A DNA stretch of 32,000 bases from an archaeon (GTDB taxonomy: Archaea > Iainarchaeota > Iainarchaeia > Iainarchaeales > CSSED10-239), in contig DAOOUC010000007.1 of assembly GCA_035390665.1 (NCBI GenBank), forward strand, positions 12,728 through 44,727. Direction: 5' to 3'. Made by a program: the position numbers and the translations under genes. The notes beneath the pieces are model-generated. The model was not told the DNA's origin, made no database searches, and saw only the letters and a program-made list of their open reading frames with translations. Shown here one piece after another: positions 6,726 to 32,000 of the stretch; position 1 is the first letter of the stretch, and every line of letters begins with the position of its first letter.

Positions 6726-7724
6726 TTATTCTTTAATTTCTCTTATAGCAGATATTCTTTTTTGTATTATCTTTTCTCCGAAAGGAATAAACCCTAAGAA
6801 TTTCTTTTTTTCTTTAACTTCAAAAACATATTCTGGATTTTCTGATTCTGTTTCTAAAATAATTTCTCCGATTATCTTTTCAGAATCAATTTTGTTTTCT
6901 TGAAGTATTTGTGTTACAGGTATTATCTTTTTTGTAGAGTTATTGTTTGTTATATAAATTTCAGAATCCTTTATTTCCATTTGAGATCTTGTTCTTAATT
7001 GTTCTTTTGGTTTTTCTGCAGTTGTTAATTCTTCTTTGTTTGGTTTAGAATTTTGTGCATTAGGGTTTGCTTGTATTTGATTTTGATTTCTGGCTCTTGC
7101 ATTTTCTGCAACAATTCCAGAATTGTCAGAATCAATAATTAAATAATGTATGTTTCCAAGATTATTCCCTTGAATTTCGGTTCCATCATTTAGTTTGATT
7201 GTGGCTTTAAATTTAAGCAATTTATCTATTCCACAAGAATTAATAAATCCAGTCATATTTTCTTGTGCAAATTCTTCTGTATCGTTTTCTTTTACATAAC
7301 CAATCTTTCCATGAAATAAAGAATCTGTTGAGCTTTTGCTTAATTTTCTTGTAAAACAAGCTTGTTCTTGTCCGTCTGTAAAAATTTCAAGAACTACCAA
7401 TTCTATTTCTGAAAGATTAATAGTTTTAGTATTAGCAATAGGCAATAATTCTAAATCTAAATAATAGCCTTCATTTTTCTTTAAATGATAGGTATTAGTT
7501 TCAGAATTAAAATAAGCACTAGAATTACATCTTTCTTTATATGGCCCAGTATAATTTTGATCAAAACGCACAGGTACAACAATTTGTGCTCTGTCTATTG
7601 CACAAGGAATTTGAAGTTCATAACTCATAGCTTCTTGAGCATAAAGTTTAGGAACAACAGCAAGTGCAAAGATTGTTAATGCAAATATTGCAACCACATA
7701 ATTTATTATTTTTTTTTCATTCAT
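6726..7724 (-). CDS. secreted hypothetical protein (332 aa), possible PepSY-like C-terminus
   Basis: Signal peptide VVAIFALTIFALAVVPKLYAQEA. AGGAGG Shine-Dalgarno (rc of 7731-7736) upstream of the ATG at 7724. Q/N-rich linker ARARNQNQIQANPNAQNSKPNK. The C-terminal EYVFEVKEKKKFLGFIPFGEK weakly resembles PepSY-type repeats. Confidence 0.7.
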   Translation of the reverse strand: MNEKKIINYVVAIFALTIFALAVVPKLYAQEAMSYELQIPCAIDRAQIVVPVRFDQNYTGPYKERCNSSAYFNSETNTYHLKKNEGYYLDLELLPIANTKTINLSEIELVVLEIFTDGQEQACFTRKLSKSSTDSLFHGKIGYVKENDTEEFAQENMTGFINSCGIDKLLKFKATIKLNDGTEIQGNNLGNIHYLIIDSDNSGIVAENARARNQNQIQANPNAQNSKPNKEELTTAEKPKEQLRTRSQMEIKDSEIYITNNNSTKKIIPVTQILQENKIDSEKIIGEIILETESENPEYVFEVKEKKKFLGFIPFGEKIIQKRISAIREIKE

Positions 7725-7735
7725 ATTTTTCCTCC

Positions 7736-7855
7736 TTAAATTTTTGTTTTTATTCTTAGTATTGTAAATAATAATGTTATTACAATAGCAAGGTAAATAA
7801 AAATAGCCAAAAAATATTGTCTAATTTTTCTTGCTGGACAACTTAATTTTTTCAT
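7736..7855 (-). CDS. possible 39-aa single-TM microprotein
   Basis: Own translation: MKKLSCPARKIRQYFLAIFIYLAIVITLLFTILRIKTKI. It is preceded by GAGGTGA 8 nt upstream of the ATG and ends 11 nt before the next gene's start. It is too short for the ORF track. Confidence 0.4.
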   Translation of the reverse strand: MKKLSCPARKIRQYFLAIFIYLAIVITLLFTILRIKTKI

Positions 7856-7966
7856 TTTTATTTCACCTCGCTTTATTTTTTTTTCTTAAAGGGGATTTAA
7901 TGGCATTGTCATTAAATCGTTTGTTTATACAAAACTTATGATTTTTTCTATTTAAATACTTTTAGC

Positions 7967-7995
7967 GAAACTTAGTGAAACTTAGTGAAAACTAC
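7967..7995. repeat. 10-bp direct tandem repeat, GAAACTTAGT x2 plus partial GAAAACTAC
   Basis: Read directly at 7967-7976, 7977-7986 and 7987-7995. It lies in the divergent intergenic region between the 7855 (-) and 8087 (+) gene starts. Confidence 0.8.
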
Positions 7996-8033
7996 AGAAA
8001 TATACTGGAATTTAGGGAAGATATTATGAAATG

Positions 8034-8041
8034 TTTATATA
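8034..8041 (+). promoter_or_regulatory. TATA-box-like element (TTTATATA) upstream of the 1657-aa gene
   Basis: TTTATATA lies about 50 nt upstream of the ATG at 8087, with a GAAGTGA SD-like element at 8072-8078. The same TTTATATA core recurs upstream of other genes here (1936, 14393, 26490). Confidence 0.4.
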
Positions 8042-8086
8042 TTTTTATATCTTATATATTATATATCTCTAAGAAGTGAAAAGATT

Positions 8087-11000
8087 ATGAAATATACAAA
8101 AATACTATCTATAATTCTTATAATTTTAATATTGCCTTTTATCTTTGCAGAAGATGAAGGCAATTCTATTATTGTTCCTTTGGCAATAAATGGAACAGAA
8201 GGAGAATTAGATGTTTTTACAATACAAACAAACTATCCAGAAATAGAACTTGATGAATCTCAAGACCTAATTACAAGTTTTTCTTCTTTTGATCAGAATT
8301 CATCATTTTCTTTAAATTCTCAAGTTAATTATAAATCTCTTAATATTCCTCATTATTTCTTAAAAGAAAATCAAAATACTAAAAAAAGAATATATCCATT
8401 TAACCAAGGAAGAACTTATGTAATAAATAATTCTTCGCAAGAAATTGCAAAAGACAAAACCTTAGAGCTTAAATTAAATTTGTCTAATACCACACAAAAA
8501 GTTTATTTAATTATTGACCAAGCGCAATCAAATCCAATACCAGCTATGACTCAATTTGTAAATATTAGTTCTTCAACAATTGAGATTAACACCATTCCAA
8601 GATATCTAAAAATAAATAAAAGTTCAATTGTAAATGGCAAACTACTTTTAAATCTTAAAGCTAATATTCCTAATTTTTCTTTACAAATAATAGAATTGGA
8701 TAATAATCAAAAAGTTAGTGGAGTTTATAGTACAAATATTTTACAATTAGATTATGATTCTTTTAACAAATATACTTTATTTCAGATAAATAGAAACCTT
8801 ATTGAATTTTATTGTCCTTATTGTCATCTTAAAGACTATGGGATAAATGAAAATGGTTTTTCTTCTTGTGGCAAGTCTGTTTTTGAACAAGAGAAGAAAT
8901 CAATAACGGAATATTTAAGTGCGAAAGAAAATGTTTGTCTTTTACCAGATGGTTCAAGGATCTCTGGTTTTACAAATGAGTCCTTGGAATTATTTGGTTT
9001 GAATAGATTATATTTTGAATGGAATGATAATATTCCTTCTGATTTCTTTGATTATGGAGAATACTATGTAGATCAAGATCAACTAAGAATTGCAGTTTCT
9101 AAAAAATTAGATGAGATAAGTAATAATAATTATGTTGAAATTGAAACTACAAAATACAAAAAAGGAAAAAACACCTTAATTTCAAAAGTTGGAACAGATA
9201 TAGAATATGACTTGTCTGAAGTTACAGAACTTTCAACAAACAGTTCAATAAACGAGTCATTGGATTTTTCTATTGCAGTATTAAATTCAATTCCCGAAGA
9301 ATATAAAAAATTAACAATAATTGATTTAACAAATAATGAACCATCTGTAAGTGTTTCTGAATTTGATAGAATAATGCAAGAGATTTTAGTTTCAAATTAT
9401 TATAAAGTAACAGACTATCACACACATTATCAAATAACTCTTGAGAAATATTTAAGTTCAATTAGTAATTTTAAAATATCAAGAGCAAATAACGATATTT
9501 ATTCTAAACTTTTATATGGCCTAGAATATAAAACACAAGGTTATTCTAATGTTTATTTATCAGAAGGATTAAATTATTTTATATATAATATTAAACCATT
9601 TGGAGAAGATATAGAAGCAATTCTAAATAATGAGCACACACAATTGTTTGGAAACTATTGGAAACTAAATCTTTTAGATAATAACCAAACCACACAACCA
9701 AAAACAGTTATTGTAAATCTTTCAGAGATTGTTCCTGAAAGAAAAGAAGCAAATATTAGTTTTAATGATCCAACTACAGATTTATATGTTAATTATTATT
9801 CAGGAAATCAATATTTTTCTAATAATCCTTTATTTTTAATGCCACTAAATGTATTAAGTTACAATCGTGGAAACTTTTTTGAGAATACTACGTCTGTTAC
9901 TTCAAAGCAACCAGATATCATAAACAATTATAATAATCTCCAAGAAGGCAAAATTGTTTCTATAGATACAACAAGTTCTGATTTTGTAATTAATTTAACA
10001 AAACCAATAATTATTACTAAAGATACTGGAGAAGAAATTTTAGTAAAGTATTATAATGGTAGAGAATATGTTAATTATTCTAATAATTTAATAAAAGTAA
10101 ATAATTCAAGAGAAGACTTTCCAACTAAAGAAACAATTGTTATTTATCCGCCAAAGTCAGAATTTGTAAATTTTCCATTAATTGTTGAATCATCAACTCC
10201 TTTAATTTTTAATAAAGAAGTTATTGAAAATAAAGAGCAAGAAAAATATGTATATAGATTAAATTCAGAAACTCAGAATTTAAGCTTTTCTGAATTAATA
10301 AACAATATTTCAAATAATCAAACTTGTTTTTCAGTTATAGATAATAGTTTTTCTTTATGGATAAATGTTGATCAAGAATTAGATGTTACAAAATCTTATA
10401 GTTATCAAGAATTTGCAAGTGCTTTACAATCAGAAGAAAATAGTCCTTCTGAAAGTCTTGCAACAACTTTAAATCAAAACCCCGAAGTAAATACAACCTT
10501 TGCAGTATATACAATTGATGAATCTCAAAATCTTTACAAACAAGTACAAGCAGTTAATTCTTATATTCAAACAGAAACAGAGACAAGGAATTTAAAAATT
10601 TTAGAAAGTTATAATGAAGTATATCAAAAAGTATTAGAAAGTGAGCCTGCATTAAAAAAAGACTTTATAAATTTATTAAATTGTAATGAAACTTTAATTT
10701 GTAGGATTTCAAAAACAAGATTTACTCCAGAGGGTTCCTTCTTTGAGAGATTTAAAAATGTGTGCATAGACAATACTCCTACAGAATGTGTAAGTTTCTG
10801 GTCAAATCCAAAAGTAAGTTATTGTTCTGCATTTATTAGAAATTTTAATAATTATTATTTTGGATATAGATTTGATTCTGCAAATGCTTGGGATTTAGCT
10901 AAACAACAAAATAATAAAAGTATTTGGAAGGCAACAACCGGCTCTCTTTCGGAAAGTAGTTATGATTATTTAATTCCTGGTTCTGTTCTTGGAATTAAGC

Positions 11001-26519: not shown

Positions 26520-26660
26520 ATGAAATCTAAGTTGAAGTCAAGTGGAAAGTTAAGATATTTTGTTTCAAGACAAAATAAGCCAAGATTAACTATACTAGAA
26601 ACAGAACTTGCAAAGTCTTGGTTAACAAAAGAAGAAGATGAAGCATGGAAGAATTTGTAA
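26520..26660 (+). CDS. putative antitoxin (46 aa) partnered with the MazF/PemK-like toxin
   Basis: Own translation: MKSKLKSSGKLRYFVSRQNKPRLTILETELAKSWLTKEEDEAWKNL. Its 3' end overlaps the toxin start by 16 nt (toxin ATG at 26645, antitoxin TAA at 26658-60), the classic type II TA layout. The acidic tail W-x-x-x-EEDEAW resembles antitoxin C-termini I recall, but no DNA-binding fold is recognisable. Confidence 0.5.
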   Translation: MKSKLKSSGKLRYFVSRQNKPRLTILETELAKSWLTKEEDEAWKNL

Positions 26661-26977
26661 AAGGACAAATTGTTGTTGTCCCTTTCCCTTTCTCAGATTT
26701 AACCGATTTAAAAAAAAGACCAGCAATGGTTATTAGTTCTCTTGAAGGAAATAATCTTATTCTTGCACAAATAACAAGTAGATATAGAACGCAAAAATAC
26801 TCATTAGATATTAAAATCAAAGACTTTGAAAAAGGAAATCTACATATAGATTCATATGTTAATTGCGATAAGATATTCACACTAGATAAAAACATAATAC
26901 TAAATTCTGTAGGAATATTAAAAGCAGAAAAAACATACAAAATTGTTTCTAAAATAATTGAAATTATTAAAAACTAA
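26645..26977 (+). CDS. PemK/MazF-family type II toxin (mRNA interferase-like)
   Basis: VKGQIVVVPFPFSDLTDLKKRPAMVISS...LILAQITS matches the MazF/PemK N-terminal pattern (G-D/Q-I-v-x-v-x-F-P-f-s-d...k-k-R-P-a-v-V). Confidence 0.8.
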   Translation: MEEFVKGQIVVVPFPFSDLTDLKKRPAMVISSLEGNNLILAQITSRYRTQKYSLDIKIKDFEKGNLHIDSYVNCDKIFTLDKNIILNSVGILKAEKTYKIVSKIIEIIKN

Positions 26978-27110
26978 TATAGTTCTTCAGAATTGGGTGG
27001 ATTAAGAAAAATCTAAACCCAAAAAAGTTTAAAAATCAAAACCTTTAACATTATTTTATAAAGATAATGCTTTACTATTTTTATATAAAAAAATATTTTA
27101 GGTGGATTAA

Positions 27111-30086
27111 ATGTTTATTAAAAAAAAGGGTCAAATTTCTATAGAAGCTTTAATTATTGTAAGTGTCTTAATTGTTGGAGGAATAATCTTTGCAACAGTT
27201 TATCTTGGACAAAGAAATAAACTTGCACAAGATCAATCTAGAGTTTTAGGAACAATTGATAATATTGATTATTCAGGAGATTTTGAAACAATTACAAATC
27301 CACCAACACCACCAGAGCCACCAAATCCAAATGAATGTTCACCTTATCCTGAGCATTGTTGTAATAATATCCCAGATTATGATGAAGATGGATTAGATTG
27401 TGGAGGTTCAGATTGTACGCCATGTGGAACACCAGAGTATGGTTGTGAAAATTTAGGAGAACCAACATTTAGTCCAGAGGGTGGAGTATTTAGTGAAACA
27501 GTAAATTTAAATTTAAATTATATTGATGAGTCTTGTCCAGATGCAGAAATACATTATACAATAGGAACAACTCCAGCAGAACCAACAACAAGTGATCAAA
27601 TCTTTGTTCCATTTTCTGGTCCAATAGAAATAACAAGTACACAAACGGTTAAAGCAAAAGTTTTTGCAGAAAGAAATGGAAACACATTATCTGGAGATAC
27701 TGCAACTAGATATTATGAAATAAATCCAAGTGTTTGTAATAAAATTCCAGGAACTGTAACATTTATTCCAAAAGGAACAACCTATAATTCTTCATTAAAG
27801 GTAGAATTAGAATATTATGAAAAAAACTGTTCAACATATGATATATTGTATACAATAAGTGATGTAGGTATTCCACCAGTAATAGAAAATATATATTCTG
27901 CACCTATAATAATAGCAAATAAAGATAAAAACATTACTGCACGTGTAAGAGTTTTAAATTCTTTAGGAACTTATGTTTATGGACTTCCAAAAACTGAAAT
28001 ATATACTTATAATAAAAATGGTTGTGATGGAACAATAGAACGTCCAACATTTAATCCAGTAGGGGGAACATATAATCAGCCAGTATATTTAAGTTTAAGT
28101 TATAATAACGCAACATGTTCAGATTATAATATTCATTATACAACAAACAATACAGAACCAACAACATTATCACCAATTGCTGGGAGAAATAAATCAATAA
28201 ATATTTCTGTAGATAAAAATATTACTGCAAAAGTCTTTGCAAGAAATTCATCTGGAATCATAGTTTCAGGACCATCAAAAAAAGAAAACTATAGAATAAC
28301 AGCAGGTGGTTCTGTGTTATGTGCAAGCGGAGTTGGCGGAGGAACAGGAACAATAACTGATCCAAAAATCATTTGTACTCCAGAGGAACTTAACGATATA
28401 AGATTTGGAGCTAATCTAGGAAAATATTATGTTTTAGGTCAAGATATAGATCTTAATCACTCAATTCTTTCAAATTTAGATTTAAGCTGGGGATATAGTT
28501 CAACATATGGTTGGACACCAATAGGTTTACAAACAAATGTATTTACTGGGTCTTTAGATGGTAACGGATATAAGATAAAAAATCTATATATTAATAGACC
28601 TACAAATTATAATGGAGAATATCTTGGATTATTTGGATATCTTGGTGGAACAAATCCAACAATTAAAAATTTGGAATTAGTTAATGCAAATATTACAGGA
28701 TATGGATATGTTGGAGGATTAGTAGGAGTTTCTCCAAATAATGTTAATTCAATTATAGATAATATAACAGTTACAAATATTAATCTAAATTCAAATAATT
28801 TATCAGCAGGTGGAATTATTGGTGCAAATTATAGAGGAGTATTACAAAATAGTACATCTACAGGAAACATAACTGGGGTAATGGTTGTAGGTGGATTAGT
28901 TGGATCCACAGGTCAATATTCTTCAATAATTAATAGTAATTCTAGTGCTTCTGTTTCAGGTACAGAAATAATAGGCGGGTTAGTTGGAATAGCTGGCGGA
29001 TCAATATTAAATAGTTATTTTGAAGGAGATGTTTCTGGAGATGAATATATAGGAGGTATTTCTGGATCTTTATCAACAGGAAACATAAATAACAGTTATT
29101 TTAATGGAACAGTAACAGGTGATACAGTTGTTGGAGGAATCTCTGGAAATGCAAATCAAACAGCAAAAATAATGTCTAGTTATTGTACTAATATTGCATC
29201 AATAAATGGACAAACAAAAATAGGCGGAATTGTAGGAAATATATCTTTAGGACAAAGTACTTTTTCTATAATTGAAGACAGCAATTTTAATGGAACAGTA
29301 ACAGGAATTTCAGAAATTGGCGGAATATTAGGTTATGGAAAGGCAACACAATCTGGTAGTTATTCTAGAACAATTATAAATTCAAATTTACTAAATGGCA
29401 CAATCACAGGCGATTCAAATGTTGGAGGAATAGTAGGATATAGTAATCAAACAAATATTGAAGGATGTAAGTCTAATGGAAACATAGTAGGTAAAAATAA
29501 TGTAGGTGGAATTACTGGACAAAGTTCTTCTCAACTAATATCAAATTCTTCTTTTTCAGGAACAATAACAAGCTCTGGTTCTGGAAATAATTTTGGAGGA
29601 ATAGCAGGATTTAATCAATCTAGTTATTTATTTAATAATTATTCTAAAGGAAATGTAACTGCAGGATCAAATGTAAATAATGTTGGTGGTCTTGTAGGGC
29701 AATGTAAATATGTTGCATCCAATATTTATAATAATTATTGTGTAAGTCCAGTAACTGGTGGTAATAATGTAGGTGGATTTATAGGATATTCAGAAAATTG
29801 TGGTGTTCAAAAAAATTATTCTACAGGAGCAGTAACAGGTACTACAAATGCAGGTGGATTTATTGGATCTATATCTGCTGGATTTTATAATTTTAATTAT
29901 TGGAATACACAAACATCAGGTAAAACAACAAGTGCAACAGGAACAGGAAAAACAACCGCCGAAATGAAACAACAAGCAACATTTGTTGGTTTTAATTTTA
30001 ATCCAGGAGATAATTTATGGAATATTAACGCAGGAAGCACATATCCATATTTAAGGCAAAATACACAAATGCCACTCCCAAATTAA
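27111..30086 (+). CDS. giant surface protein: class III (prepilin-type KG/QxSxE) signal + Cys-rich DCGG module + 3 chitobiase-C-like domains + GLUG-motif region
   Basis: MFIKKKGQISIEALIIVSVLIVGGIIF has KG then Q+1 and E+5, the DUF361/class III signal pattern. HCCNNIPDYDEDGLDCGGSDCTPCG follows. There are three roughly 95-aa repeats of type PTFSPEGGVF...AEIHYT...VKAKVFA (nt ~27441-28300) and many VGGLVG/IGGISG motifs. The C-terminus YWNTQTSGKTTSATGTGKTTAEMKQQATF...YPYLRQNTQMP is shared with the 19273..23247 gene. Confidence 0.88.
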   Translation: MFIKKKGQISIEALIIVSVLIVGGIIFATVYLGQRNKLAQDQSRVLGTIDNIDYSGDFETITNPPTPPEPPNPNECSPYPEHCCNNIPDYDEDGLDCGGSDCTPCGTPEYGCENLGEPTFSPEGGVFSETVNLNLNYIDESCPDAEIHYTIGTTPAEPTTSDQIFVPFSGPIEITSTQTVKAKVFAERNGNTLSGDTATRYYEINPSVCNKIPGTVTFIPKGTTYNSSLKVELEYYEKNCSTYDILYTISDVGIPPVIENIYSAPIIIANKDKNITARVRVLNSLGTYVYGLPKTEIYTYNKNGCDGTIERPTFNPVGGTYNQPVYLSLSYNNATCSDYNIHYTTNNTEPTTLSPIAGRNKSINISVDKNITAKVFARNSSGIIVSGPSKKENYRITAGGSVLCASGVGGGTGTITDPKIICTPEELNDIRFGANLGKYYVLGQDIDLNHSILSNLDLSWGYSSTYGWTPIGLQTNVFTGSLDGNGYKIKNLYINRPTNYNGEYLGLFGYLGGTNPTIKNLELVNANITGYGYVGGLVGVSPNNVNSIIDNITVTNINLNSNNLSAGGIIGANYRGVLQNSTSTGNITGVMVVGGLVGSTGQYSSIINSNSSASVSGTEIIGGLVGIAGGSILNSYFEGDVSGDEYIGGISGSLSTGNINNSYFNGTVTGDTVVGGISGNANQTAKIMSSYCTNIASINGQTKIGGIVGNISLGQSTFSIIEDSNFNGTVTGISEIGGILGYGKATQSGSYSRTIINSNLLNGTITGDSNVGGIVGYSNQTNIEGCKSNGNIVGKNNVGGITGQSSSQLISNSSFSGTITSSGSGNNFGGIAGFNQSSYLFNNYSKGNVTAGSNVNNVGGLVGQCKYVASNIYNNYCVSPVTGGNNVGGFIGYSENCGVQKNYSTGAVTGTTNAGGFIGSISAGFYNFNYWNTQTSGKTTSATGTGKTTAEMKQQATFVGFNFNPGDNLWNINAGSTYPYLRQNTQMPLPN

Positions 30087-30163
30087 TTTTACTTTACCTT
30101 TTATATTTATTTCTTTTCTTAAATATATTTATTAATTGAATATAATTAATAGAAGAAATATTT

Positions 30164-32000
30164 ATGAATACAAAAAGTTATTTATTAATCTTATCAATTT
30201 TATTAATCTTCTTATCTAATTTTATATGTGCAGAAGAGTTAGATTTTTCTATTACTCAAAAGATATTTACTAATTTAGGAATAACAGAAAATAAAGAAGA
30301 AATATACTTAGATCATGGAGGAGTATTATATCCCCCAGAAAATGAATTAAGAAAACAAGGATTAAATTTAAGTTCTTATAAACAACAATTAAGAGATACA
30401 GCATCAATAAATAGAAATTCAAGTGTTGCAAATATTTGGGGAACAAGTCCATTGTCTGGAACTGTCCATATTCCTGTTCTTTTAGTTCAATTTTCAGATA
30501 ATCAAGCAACCTATACTCAATCTCAATTAAATGAAGCATTTAATAGTAGTAATTATCTGGTAAATAATATTTCAGGAATAAGTTTAAGTAAATATTATTA
30601 TAAGCAATCATATGGAGACCTTAATTTAGTATTTGATGTTTATGATTGGAGAACCGCACCAAGCACCTATTCTTATTATTCTCAAAATAATACAACTTCT
30701 TTTCAATTAGGAATTGATACAGTTAATTTATTTAATCCATATATTGATTATACACAATATGATAATGATAATGATGGAAGATTAGATGGTATGATAATAA
30801 TTTATCCTGGAGTTGGCACGAATGCACCAAATGGTATTTGGCCACATGCTAGAATCTTAAGACAATATAATTCTAATCCAATGGATGGAAAATATTTAGG
30901 AAATATTGCATTTGTTCCTGAGAAATCTACAGGTTCTTTAAATGCTTTTTCTGTAGTTACTGTAGCTCATGAGTTTGCACATGTTTTAGGGTTAATGGAT
31001 CTTTATTCAATCAACCCAACAACAGGAGCACAAAGTAATGGTGCTGTAAGGCAAATGACAATGATGGCACATAGTGTTCCAAGTTTTGCTTGTGCAATTA
31101 AGCCAATTAACTTAGACGTTTGGTCTCGTTATTTCTTTGGTTGGATCGAGCCAGAAATCTTAACCACAGATAGTAATAAAAATATAAGTCTTAGAAGTGT
31201 AAATGATTATCCAGACGCAGTAATTTTAAAAAATAATAATTTTGGTACAAGAGAATTTTTTATAATAGAAAATAGATATAGAAGTTTAACAGATCCAAAT
31301 AATTTAGACAAATGTATGTTTAGTGATTCTACATACGATACTGGAGGATTTGCAATTTATCATGTTGATGAACAATATATAGAGGAGAATTATCCTACAA
31401 ATTCTATAATGTATGATTCAGATAGCAATTATTGTGGAGACACCATAAGTCACCCAGGACTTTTATATGAACAAAATTATGTTACATCTTGTAGTACTTC
31501 AATAAATGTAGATAGAACAGATCTATATTTTAATAGTGAAATAAATAATTGTAATTTATCTAGATTTGATGAAAATCAATATATGTGTCCAGGACCATTT
31601 TGGTTTCCAATTTTAGATTTAACAACAAGAAGTTATACTGGAGTAAATAATACTTTTGTTAGATTTCAAGCAATTAGCCCTGCAAGTCAATTTACAATGA
31701 ATGCAAAAATGCTTGTTGGGCAAGAGACCGCAAATCCTGAATTGTTTCCAAATCCAGGAACATATCCTCAAACTACACAAGTTACCATAAATACAACAAC
31801 ACCTAATGCTATAATTTATTACACAACAGACGGAACAAATCCAACAACAAACAGTCTAATCTACACATCTCCAATAACTGTAACTGAAGGCACAACAACA
31901 ATAAAAGCAATAGCAAAAAGAAATGATTATTATATAAGTGACATTATGTCAAGTACATACACAATAACTGGGACTGTTGCAACACCAACAGCTAATCAAA
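30164..32000 (+). CDS. secreted M6-family (immune inhibitor A / InhA-like) metalloprotease with C-terminal chitobiase-C-like domain (3' end beyond window)
   Basis: Own translation from the ATG at 30164: MNTKSYLLILSILLIFLSNFICAEE (signal)...GTVHIPVLLVQFSDNQ...DNDNDGRLDGMIIIYPG...VTVAHEFAHVLGLMDLY (HExxH followed by GL-x-DLY, as in InhA)...FPNPGTYPQTTQVTINTTTPNAIIYYTTDGTNPTT. The frame is open to the window end and is absent from the ORF track for that reason. Confidence 0.85.
   Translation, partial: MNTKSYLLILSILLIFLSNFICAEELDFSITQKIFTNLGITENKEEIYLDHGGVLYPPENELRKQGLNLSSYKQQLRDTASINRNSSVANIWGTSPLSGTVHIPVLLVQFSDNQATYTQSQLNEAFNSSNYLVNNISGISLSKYYYKQSYGDLNLVFDVYDWRTAPSTYSYYSQNNTTSFQLGIDTVNLFNPYIDYTQYDNDNDGRLDGMIIIYPGVGTNAPNGIWPHARILRQYNSNPMDGKYLGNIAFVPEKSTGSLNAFSVVTVAHEFAHVLGLMDLYSINPTTGAQSNGAVRQMTMMAHSVPSFACAIKPINLDVWSRYFFGWIEPEILTTDSNKNISLRSVNDYPDAVILKNNNFGTREFFIIENRYRSLTDPNNLDKCMFSDSTYDTGGFAIYHVDEQYIEENYPTNSIMYDSDSNYCGDTISHPGLLYEQNYVTSCSTSINVDRTDLYFNSEINNCNLSRFDENQYMCPGPFWFPILDLTTRSYTGVNNTFVRFQAISPASQFTMNAKMLVGQETANPELFPNPGTYPQTTQVTINTTTPNAIIYYTTDGTNPTTNSLIYTSPITVTEGTTTIKAIAKRNDYYISDIMSSTYTITGTVATPTANQ

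Follow-up and report, generated by a model that had tools for sequence, protein, structure and literature searches.

Do an adhesin with a pilin-type signal and a secreted protease that are encoded side by side in an archaeal genome form one surface system, and are they aimed at the same target? The question is raised by the end of contig C7 (DAOOUC010000007.1, 44727 nt) of assembly GCA_035390665.1, the 848-kb genome of a DPANN-type archaeon (21 contigs, 28% G+C, 86% complete) whose gene content is archaeal, with class III signals and with SUI1, RNase P p29 and S8e in the syntenic contigs. The window is the whole 32,000-nucleotide stretch analysed here, C7:12728-44727, and its last base, 32000, is the contig end. 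A GLUG-repeat adhesin of 991 amino acids is encoded at 27111-30086 (+) and, after a spacer of 77 nt (30087-30163), an InhA-like M6 metalloprotease gene starts at 30164 on the same strand; both open reading frames (ORFs) and the spacer lie as an earlier note on this DNA had described. It went on to propose that a shared chitobiase-C-like domain (CHB_HEX_C, hereafter CHB) sends both proteins to one surface ligand. In this study, we propose another reading, to which we give a probability of about 0.55, namely that the two genes, linked but with separate promoters, encode an 'attach and digest' surface module.

The linkage is seen in the relatives. Only four full-length adhesin orthologues were found (99, 81, 61 and 55% identity), and all three of those with genomic context (L047, L048 and L050) are followed by an M6 orthologue 60-80 nt 3' on the same strand, so that the objection foreseen in the earlier note, that the pair might be syntenic in no relative, fails. 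The pairs compare as follows.

Window pair: reference for the adhesin and M6 identities; MazF gene upstream of the adhesin.
L047 pair: adhesin 81%, M6 96%; DDE transposase gene upstream.
L048 pair: adhesin 55%, M6 79%; adhesin at a contig start.
L050 pair: adhesin 61%, M6 79%; methyltransferase gene upstream.

GLUG genes with class III signals also stand directly 5' of M6 paralogues in three further genomes of the same genus, G002 (two loci), G007 and G009, and in G003 a GLUG gene lies about 4 kb 5' of M6 with four housekeeping genes between them. The M6 tree is poorly resolved within the genus, and orthology among the paralogues is not fixable from it. The second M6 gene of the host genome lies, together with its two neighbours, at 7148-12140 of L005 (G000:C2:4000-22000); it encodes 945 amino acids with four CHB modules, and the group is situated between ribosomal protein genes. 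On the same strand it is flanked by genes for a 105-aa pilin and for a 582-aa class III-signal DUF285 (BspA-like) protein, so that both of its neighbours are class III-signal genes, against only 17 such genes genome-wide. Within this genus, class III-signal genes are thus the usual surroundings of M6, and the specific pairing of this adhesin with M6 has lasted while the sequences diverged considerably.

The two genes of the pair differ in their ratios of nonsynonymous to synonymous substitution rates (dN/dS), which are 0.12 against L047 and 0.22 against L048 for M6, and 0.38 and 0.47, respectively, for the adhesin. Along the adhesin, dS against L047 stays at 0.09-0.20 for the signal and the two outer GLUG blocks (first and last), and reaches 0.52-0.54 across the three CHB modules and the middle GLUG block. 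Because dS differs fivefold between regions, the adhesin is a mosaic, which on sequence comparison suggests that its cassettes recombine between strains. A fast, recombining adhesin beside a conserved enzyme fits surface recognition plus catalysis. The mosaic could also be taken as a sign of adjacency without function, in a variable surface-protein island beside a ribosomal protein operon where genes for secreted proteins gather and undergo duplication and recombination; close relatives differ in the gene that stands upstream of M6, and repeat-rich genes break assemblies there, with paralogous M6 tails at three contig starts. We regard this explanation as unlikely, since the pair has survived divergence of the adhesin down to 55% identity (dS about 0.7) while its flank was replaced three times, and since divergent GLUG subfamilies precede different M6 paralogues in four genomes of the same genus.

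The first protein of the 'attach and digest' module is built of the following parts.

27027-27110 (+): adhesin upstream region, with TATA-like GTTTAAAAA (27027-35) and TTTATATAAA (27080-89) and the Shine-Dalgarno sequence AGGTGG (27100-27105).
27111-27209 (+): class III (type IV pilin-like) signal and hydrophobic helix, MFIKKKG/QISIEALIIVSVLIVGGIIFATVYLG, with predicted cleavage after Gly7.
27216-27449 (+): Pro-rich linker and Cys-rich module, CSPYPEHCCN...DCGGSDCTPC...YGCE; predicted local distance difference test score (pLDDT) below 50 at residues 33-111.
27450-28316 (+): three tandem CHB_HEX_C/Fn3_assoc beta-sandwiches, aa 114-212, 213-309 and 310-402.
28317-30086 (+): GLUG-repeat beta-solenoid (about aa 420-935), tail ...YWNTQTSGKTT...YPYLRQN and stop codon, from PF07581 and an AlphaFold2 (AF2) model.

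AGGTGG reads as a strong Shine-Dalgarno sequence 5 nt 5' of the ATG, and the last 95 nt or so before the adhesin are conserved in L047 despite the different gene (a DDE transposase) upstream there. The N-terminus MFIKKKG/QISIEALIIVSVLIVGG... has the K-G/Q-x-S-x-E class III form, with a basic leader, glycine at -1 and a hydrophobic helix; this signal type is found on 17 proteins genome-wide. Three A24 prepilin peptidase homologues (PF01478) and five PilB-type ATPases (PF00437), all above cut-off, are encoded in the genome, and the adhesin may be displayed on a pilus or filament. The Cys pattern of the Cys-rich module is kept in the orthologues. The AF2 model (pLDDT 74) has a helix at residues 4-46, a low-confidence Pro/Cys-rich stretch to residue 111, beta-sandwiches at about 119-204, 216-300 and 313-396, and a regular beta-solenoid at about 420-935 with pLDDT mostly 85-95; residues 33-111 and 543-573 are low-confidence linkers. 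In Pfam, Glug (PF07581) scores 56.8 bits in four stretches (cut-off 20.5) and CHB_HEX_C_1 (PF13290) 55.4 bits (cut-off 22), and a hidden Markov model (HMM) built from the genome's own CHB_HEX_C copies finds three copies (E 4e-25, 6e-18 and 3e-22), in agreement with the triplication proposed earlier. The top Foldseek matches of the adhesin are tandems of three FN3/Ig domains, among them parts of SiiE and of the grappling-hook stalk of Aureispira GhpA, which fits the three CHB modules being a putative stalk. At E<=1e-10 the GLUG part has 1917 relatives, for the most part surface proteins of bacteria that carry S-layer homology (SLH), LPXTG or type IX secretion system (T9SS) anchors, and a PDB search returned for this region only a marginal match to a solved structure, 7uvl (E 0.003).

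The second protein, as far as the contig carries it, consists of the following.

30164-30232 (+): Sec-type signal peptide, MNTKSYLLILSILLIFLSNFICA/EE, by sequence reading.
30479-31285 (+): M6 (InhA/thuringilysin-type) catalytic domain, aa 106-374, from TIGR03296 and AF2/Foldseek.
31724-31990 (+): first CHB_HEX_C module, Cys-free (protease subtype), the orthologue of domain 1 in other M6 proteases.
31991-32000 (+): contig end with the M6 gene open; about 340-430 aa missing, full-length orthologues being 950-1040 aa.

The visible part of the ORF runs from 30164 to 31999 (+), encodes 612 amino acids and is open at the contig end; as the window ends where C7 ends, the protease is cut by the assembly and not by biology. 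The full-length orthologues, from whose length (about 950-1040 aa) the missing 340-430 or so residues are reckoned, carry 3-4 CHB_HEX_C modules and sometimes a DUF5018-like module. The marks quoted in the earlier note, ...SNFICA/EE, IPVLLVQFSD, HEFAHVLGLMDLY and FPNPGTYPQTTQVTINTTTPNAIIYYTTDGTNPTT...TTTIKAIAKR, were all located. The cleavage-site pattern [VI][YFC][AS]/[EK][ED] recurs in the M6 orthologues, and the AF2 model (pLDDT 81; predicted template-modelling score, pTM, 0.79) begins with a helix (residues 2-20) and is then disordered over residues 20-50. Both proteins thus carry predicted export signals as had been claimed, class III in the adhesin and Sec in the protease.

The InhA-type M6 identity also stands, at a remote distance. 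The zinc motif HEFAHVLGLMD at aa 269-279 (30968-31000) is an intact HExxHxxGxxD, and H269, E270, H273, G276, D279, Y281 and M301 are invariant across 25 homologues. The protease scores 117.8 bits against the NCBIfam M6 domain model TIGR03296 (cut-off 110.8) and 19.5 bits against PF05547, under the cut-off of 22, which makes it a divergent family member. While a single-sequence PDB search with the protease did not find InhA, a profile of the clade matched InhA 4yu5 as its sole hit among PDB sequences (E 1.3e-3). The top four Foldseek matches are InhA2 zymogen chains of 4yu6/4yu5 (E 1e-16 to 1e-17, probability 1.0, query-normalised template-modelling score TMq 0.49), with 11-12% identity in the structural alignment. 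About 50 close homologues share 34-62% identity, and the named ones are labelled 'archaeon' except for three short contigs binned as bacterial; beyond them identity falls sharply to 28% (bacterial M6 proteins). Among related genomes the clade was found in 14 of the 21 that belong to this family and, at E<=1e-10, in 0 of the 39 genomes of other families in the order, and TIGR03296 matches 20 of 215 genomes of the phylum, 15 of these 20, the host genome included, belonging to this family. The M6 clade is therefore lineage-specific, almost confined to one DPANN family and sporadic elsewhere in the phylum. No paper combining 'immune inhibitor A' with DPANN was found in the literature library that was searched.

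Are the two genes transcribed together? Operon-like features are present, with the genes on the same strand, a short spacer and conserved adjacency. The spacer itself contains two elements.

30087-30163 (+): A/T-rich spacer of 77 nt, with TATA-like TTAAATATAT (30119-30128) and degenerate ATTAATTG (30131-30138).
30100-30168 (+): imperfect inverted repeat, a putative A/U hairpin, with arms 30100-30129 and 30139-30168, the 3' arm lying over the M6 start codon.

No Shine-Dalgarno sequence precedes M6 in the window spacer or in the M6 orthologues, and no bacterial-type GC hairpin terminator was found in the spacer. In ten relatives the region 5' of M6 follows one layout, (A)GTTAAY, about 10 nt, a TATA-like box (C)TTTAAAAA, about 22 nt and ATG. 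The (A)GTTAAY motif with the CTTTAAAAA TATA-like box was observed at L025-L035, L041 and L044-L046 whatever the gene upstream, and its counterpart in the window is 30119-30149. A promoter-like layout that does not depend on the upstream gene suggests that M6 is served by its own promoter with a leaderless or short-leader mRNA, and the window M6 gene probably has such a promoter. The AGTTAAY box may be a regulator site of an M6 regulon. As the motif of a regulon shared by adhesin and M6 it was rejected: of 750 genes in the genome only 17 have it upstream, both M6 genes show a degenerate form, and it is absent 5' of the adhesin, which leaves no evidence of co-regulation.

The hairpin has 30-nt arms that are 80% complementary, and for the spacer RNA the computed fold has a dG of -19.6 to -21.6 kcal/mol and a z of -6.2 to -6.4, a level reached by 0 of 200 shuffles. 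It was rejected as a conserved RNA element, being strong only in the window and in L047, whose spacer is identical, reduced to a 12-bp stem in L048 and L050, and absent from the more distant orthologues. In the window lineage the hairpin may gate read-through or translation; masking of the start codon and a DNA operator are alternatives. From these parts one could construct a dedicated contact-dependent 'grapple and cut' device of one DPANN family, in which the GLUG adhesin, held in a pilus or in the membrane, seizes a partner cell, the CHB-tailed protease opens that cell's surface protein layer by local digestion for a cell-cell bridge and the hairpin couples M6 production to adhesin transcription, a scheme that we hold to be rather improbable.

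How would the two proteins work under the preferred reading, a linked but separately promoted 'attach and digest' module? The adhesin would be exported by its class III signal, with a prepilin peptidase probably cutting after Gly7, and its hydrophobic helix would then be its anchor, either to the membrane or to a type IV pilus-like filament. The Cys-rich linker and the three disulfide-type Ig-like CHB_HEX_C modules would act as a stalk presenting the GLUG beta-helix of about 500 residues, the likely binding surface. The protease, a zinc enzyme of the M6 family with the InhA fold, would be secreted through Sec, and the 3-4 Cys-free CHB modules and charged tail known from full-length relatives would probably serve to lengthen the enzyme or to keep it at a surface rich in glycans. 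It would most likely digest extracellular proteins, of a partner-cell envelope or of the environment, with access or amino acids as the gain. Protein scavenging has been put forward as the role of secreted peptidases in DPANN (PMC8091004). The functional coupling of adhesin and protease is inferred, as are these substrates, the pilus display and the stalk role.

Several observations weigh against this reading. On the adhesin signal, PF04021 aligns over its full model length (positions 1-27 of 27) but reaches 16.6 bits against a cut-off of 23.7, and the AF2 model has no globular pilin head after the helix, only about 70 low-confidence residues followed by Ig-like modules, which makes incorporation into a filament uncertain. 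The window spacer departs from the clean AGTTAAY/TATA layout of the relatives. The gene directly upstream of M6 is not GLUG in some close relatives, where housekeeping genes, a small CHB pilin or an M6-like gene are found; in L044 the upstream neighbours are a 974-aa anchored protein and a small CHB pilin, and in L046 another M6-like gene and an ATPase. In those relatives the downstream block is conserved instead, with M6 followed by a class III protein of about 480-560 aa, a Hint protein of about 660-690 aa and the L3 operon, so that the downstream class III protein is the more constant partner of M6 and the adhesin-M6 link is not universal. Finally, the relatives are kin, and the recurrence of the pairing is partly descent. 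At the same block, L046 (1-10702) has two further tandem M6-type genes, with AbiEii and ATPase_2 between them, 5' of the M6, class III, Hint and L3 genes.

Is the CHB module then specific to the pair? The claim that both proteins carry the same domain is correct at family level, with PF13290 above cut-off in both (in the protease 69.8 bits at residues 529-589, cut-off 22), and goes too far beyond it, the protease copy being only 20-30% identical to the adhesin copies. The genome-specific HMM finds one copy in the window protease (E 3e-28), while phmmer with the protease module alone did not match the adhesin and a profile was needed. The protease module has 55% identity with domain 1 of the C2 M6 paralogue, against 30, 20 and 27% with the three copies in the adhesin; the adhesin modules are 28-38% identical to each other and 40% to that of one small pilin, and have in common a Cys-bearing inserted loop. 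A module of the adhesin subtype has one Cys ahead of strand 1 and one in this loop. Across the relatives, at least two Cys are present in 13 of 15 GLUG-borne modules and in 0 of 35 M6-borne modules, 33 of which have none. A short tree of 70 modules, with moderate support only (Shimodaira-Hasegawa-like, SH-like, 91), separates an adhesin/pilin clade of 16 rows, 13 of them GLUG-borne, from a clade holding all 35 M6 modules; the window protease copy falls among the M6 domain-1 modules and each adhesin copy with its positional orthologue. The comparison suggested earlier, whether the protease copy clusters with the adhesin copies, thus gives a negative answer by identity, tree and Cys pattern alike.

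According to the genome-specific HMM, the module occurs 18 times in 10 ORFs of the 848-kb genome. Among these are the two M6 genes, the orphan M6-type tails with which three contigs start, two small pilins (of 140 and 150 aa) in which a single module follows a class III signal, and two Pilin_N-type proteins, one with RCC1-like repeats. The 140- and 150-aa CHB pilins were observed in tandem at C5:83-957 (-), the module of one being of the Cys-bearing adhesin subtype and that of the other Cys-free; judged by their sequences they are in effect pilins with a CHB head. In L025 (G002:C8) a GLUG adhesin of 1161 aa lies at 6804-10286 upstream of M6, with module 1 of adhesin type and modules 2-3 in the M6-type clade. 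Since this G002 adhesin holds both subtypes, modules can move between the adhesin and protease classes, although this is not the rule.

With these data, the proposal that the pair is one operon in which the same chitobiase-C-like domain aims adhesin and protease at the same host surface ligand appears quite improbable. The shared strand, the 77-nt spacer, PF13290 above cut-off in both proteins, adjacency conserved in the orthologues, the lack of a GC hairpin terminator in the spacer and the mixed modules of the G002 adhesin are what it would explain. On the other hand, the 18 copies of the module are spread over 10 ORFs that encode pilins, RCC1-repeat proteins and proteases alike; the protease copy is nearer to the paralogue's domain 1 (55%) than to the adhesin copies (20-30%) and has a separate clade and Cys pattern; the tandem Ig-like arrays match stalk folds; and AGGTGG precedes the adhesin, while the M6 orthologues lack a Shine-Dalgarno sequence and have a promoter-like element to themselves. 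CHB_HEX_C is a general extracellular building block of this genome and generic in these genomes, with at least two sublineages, so its sharing is no evidence of a common target, and the inference of a shared surface ligand is not supported. The tempting step from shared module to common target is herewith corrected for these genomes.

Very improbable, finally, is an action of the protease on the cell's own surface, where it would mature, trim or release pilin-signal adhesins or the downstream Hint protein so that fibres are remodelled or shed. In its favour, M6 genes of the genus nearly always adjoin class III-signal genes on either side, the block of M6, class III, Hint and L3 genes is conserved, and the long low-confidence adhesin linkers (33-111 and 543-573) would be open to proteolysis. 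Against it, neither a cleavage motif nor a dependency can be seen, the partners vary so greatly by locus (GLUG, DUF285, CHB pilins) that a specific own-surface substrate is argued against, InhA and PrtV, the M6 enzymes already known, act on foreign proteins, and outside this genus most M6 genes of the family stand without a flagged class III neighbour.

Against known systems, the protease resembles InhA1/InhA2 (thuringilysin, MEROPS M6, Bacillus cereus group, 4yu5/4yu6) and Vibrio PrtV in its HExxHxxGxxD motif with a downstream Met, its Sec signal followed by an N-terminal pro-like segment, its catalytic fold (Foldseek E 1e-17) and its C-terminal beta-sandwich accessory domains. It differs from InhA in the low structural-alignment identity (about 11-12%), the PF05547 score below cut-off, and the archaeal host and near-confinement of its clade to one DPANN family. 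The C-terminal array of the window clade, 3-4 CHB_HEX_C plus a DUF5018-like module, has neither the accessory domains of InhA nor the PKD domains of PrtV, and, unlike the genes of both, the M6 genes of this clade have neighbours with pilin-type signals.

The adhesin is similar to modular type IV pilins, such as Streptococcus sanguinis PilB with its vWA module and PilC with its lectin module, in joining a class III signal and helix to a large module, and as in those systems prepilin peptidase and ATPases are encoded in the host genome. Large adhesin-like proteins with a class III signal peptide (SPIII) occur in archaeal type 4 filament loci, and no protease is mentioned there (PMC13705601); these too carry the signal and helix on a large module presumed to be displayed on or beside the filament. 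Unlike modular pilins and SPIII proteins, the window adhesin lacks a globular head, is encoded outside a pilus-assembly locus and has a GLUG beta-helix on an Ig-like stalk. With GLUG surface proteins (PF07581, a group that takes in the N-terminal region of streptococcal M26 proteins of the IgA1 protease type) it shares the solenoid and the C-terminal ...GKTT..M....W.I...YPYL, whereas bacterial GLUG proteins use LPXTG, SLH or T9SS anchors in place of an archaeal class III anchor with a Cys-rich module and three CHB_HEX_C modules. The fold searches also returned fragments of SiiE and GhpA, and such fibrillar adhesins share the plan predicted here, a stalk of tandem beta-sandwiches with the binding region at its far end; the window adhesin is much shorter, has three stalk modules and differs in anchor and tip domain.

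What is new here is the existence of two module sublineages without specific sharing, the synteny of the orthologous pair, the selection contrast and the spacer hairpin. How DPANN archaea attach to partner cells and draw nutrients from them is a largely unknown field, and a conserved, lineage-restricted pair of a fast adhesin and a slow InhA-like protease offers two concrete proteins for the study of binding and substrate.

Where does the cut protease gene continue? No k-mer overlap was found between the end of C7 and the other contigs of the genome. Near-identical M6-type 3' tails (84-91% at module level) were observed at three contig starts, C15:1-702, C16:3-1016 and C21:1-699, and evidently these repeats break the assembly. 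On C15 the tail is followed by a class III-signal protein, a Hint-domain protein and the ribosomal L3 operon, with 49, 44 and 96% identity to the L044 counterparts for the class III-signal protein, the Hint protein and L3, respectively. Because C15 both starts with an M6-type tail and carries the conserved downstream block, it is by synteny probably the continuation of C7, with the paralogous tails of C16 and C21 keeping the join unproven. As repeats in such genes systematically break assemblies, M6 proteases are routinely truncated or missed in the annotation of metagenome-assembled genomes.

Next upstream of the adhesin, at 26645-26977, is a gene for a MazF/PemK-like toxin (PF02452, E 6e-15), and an ORF of 46 codons at 26520-26660 overlaps its start, so that the two are probably a toxin-antitoxin pair.

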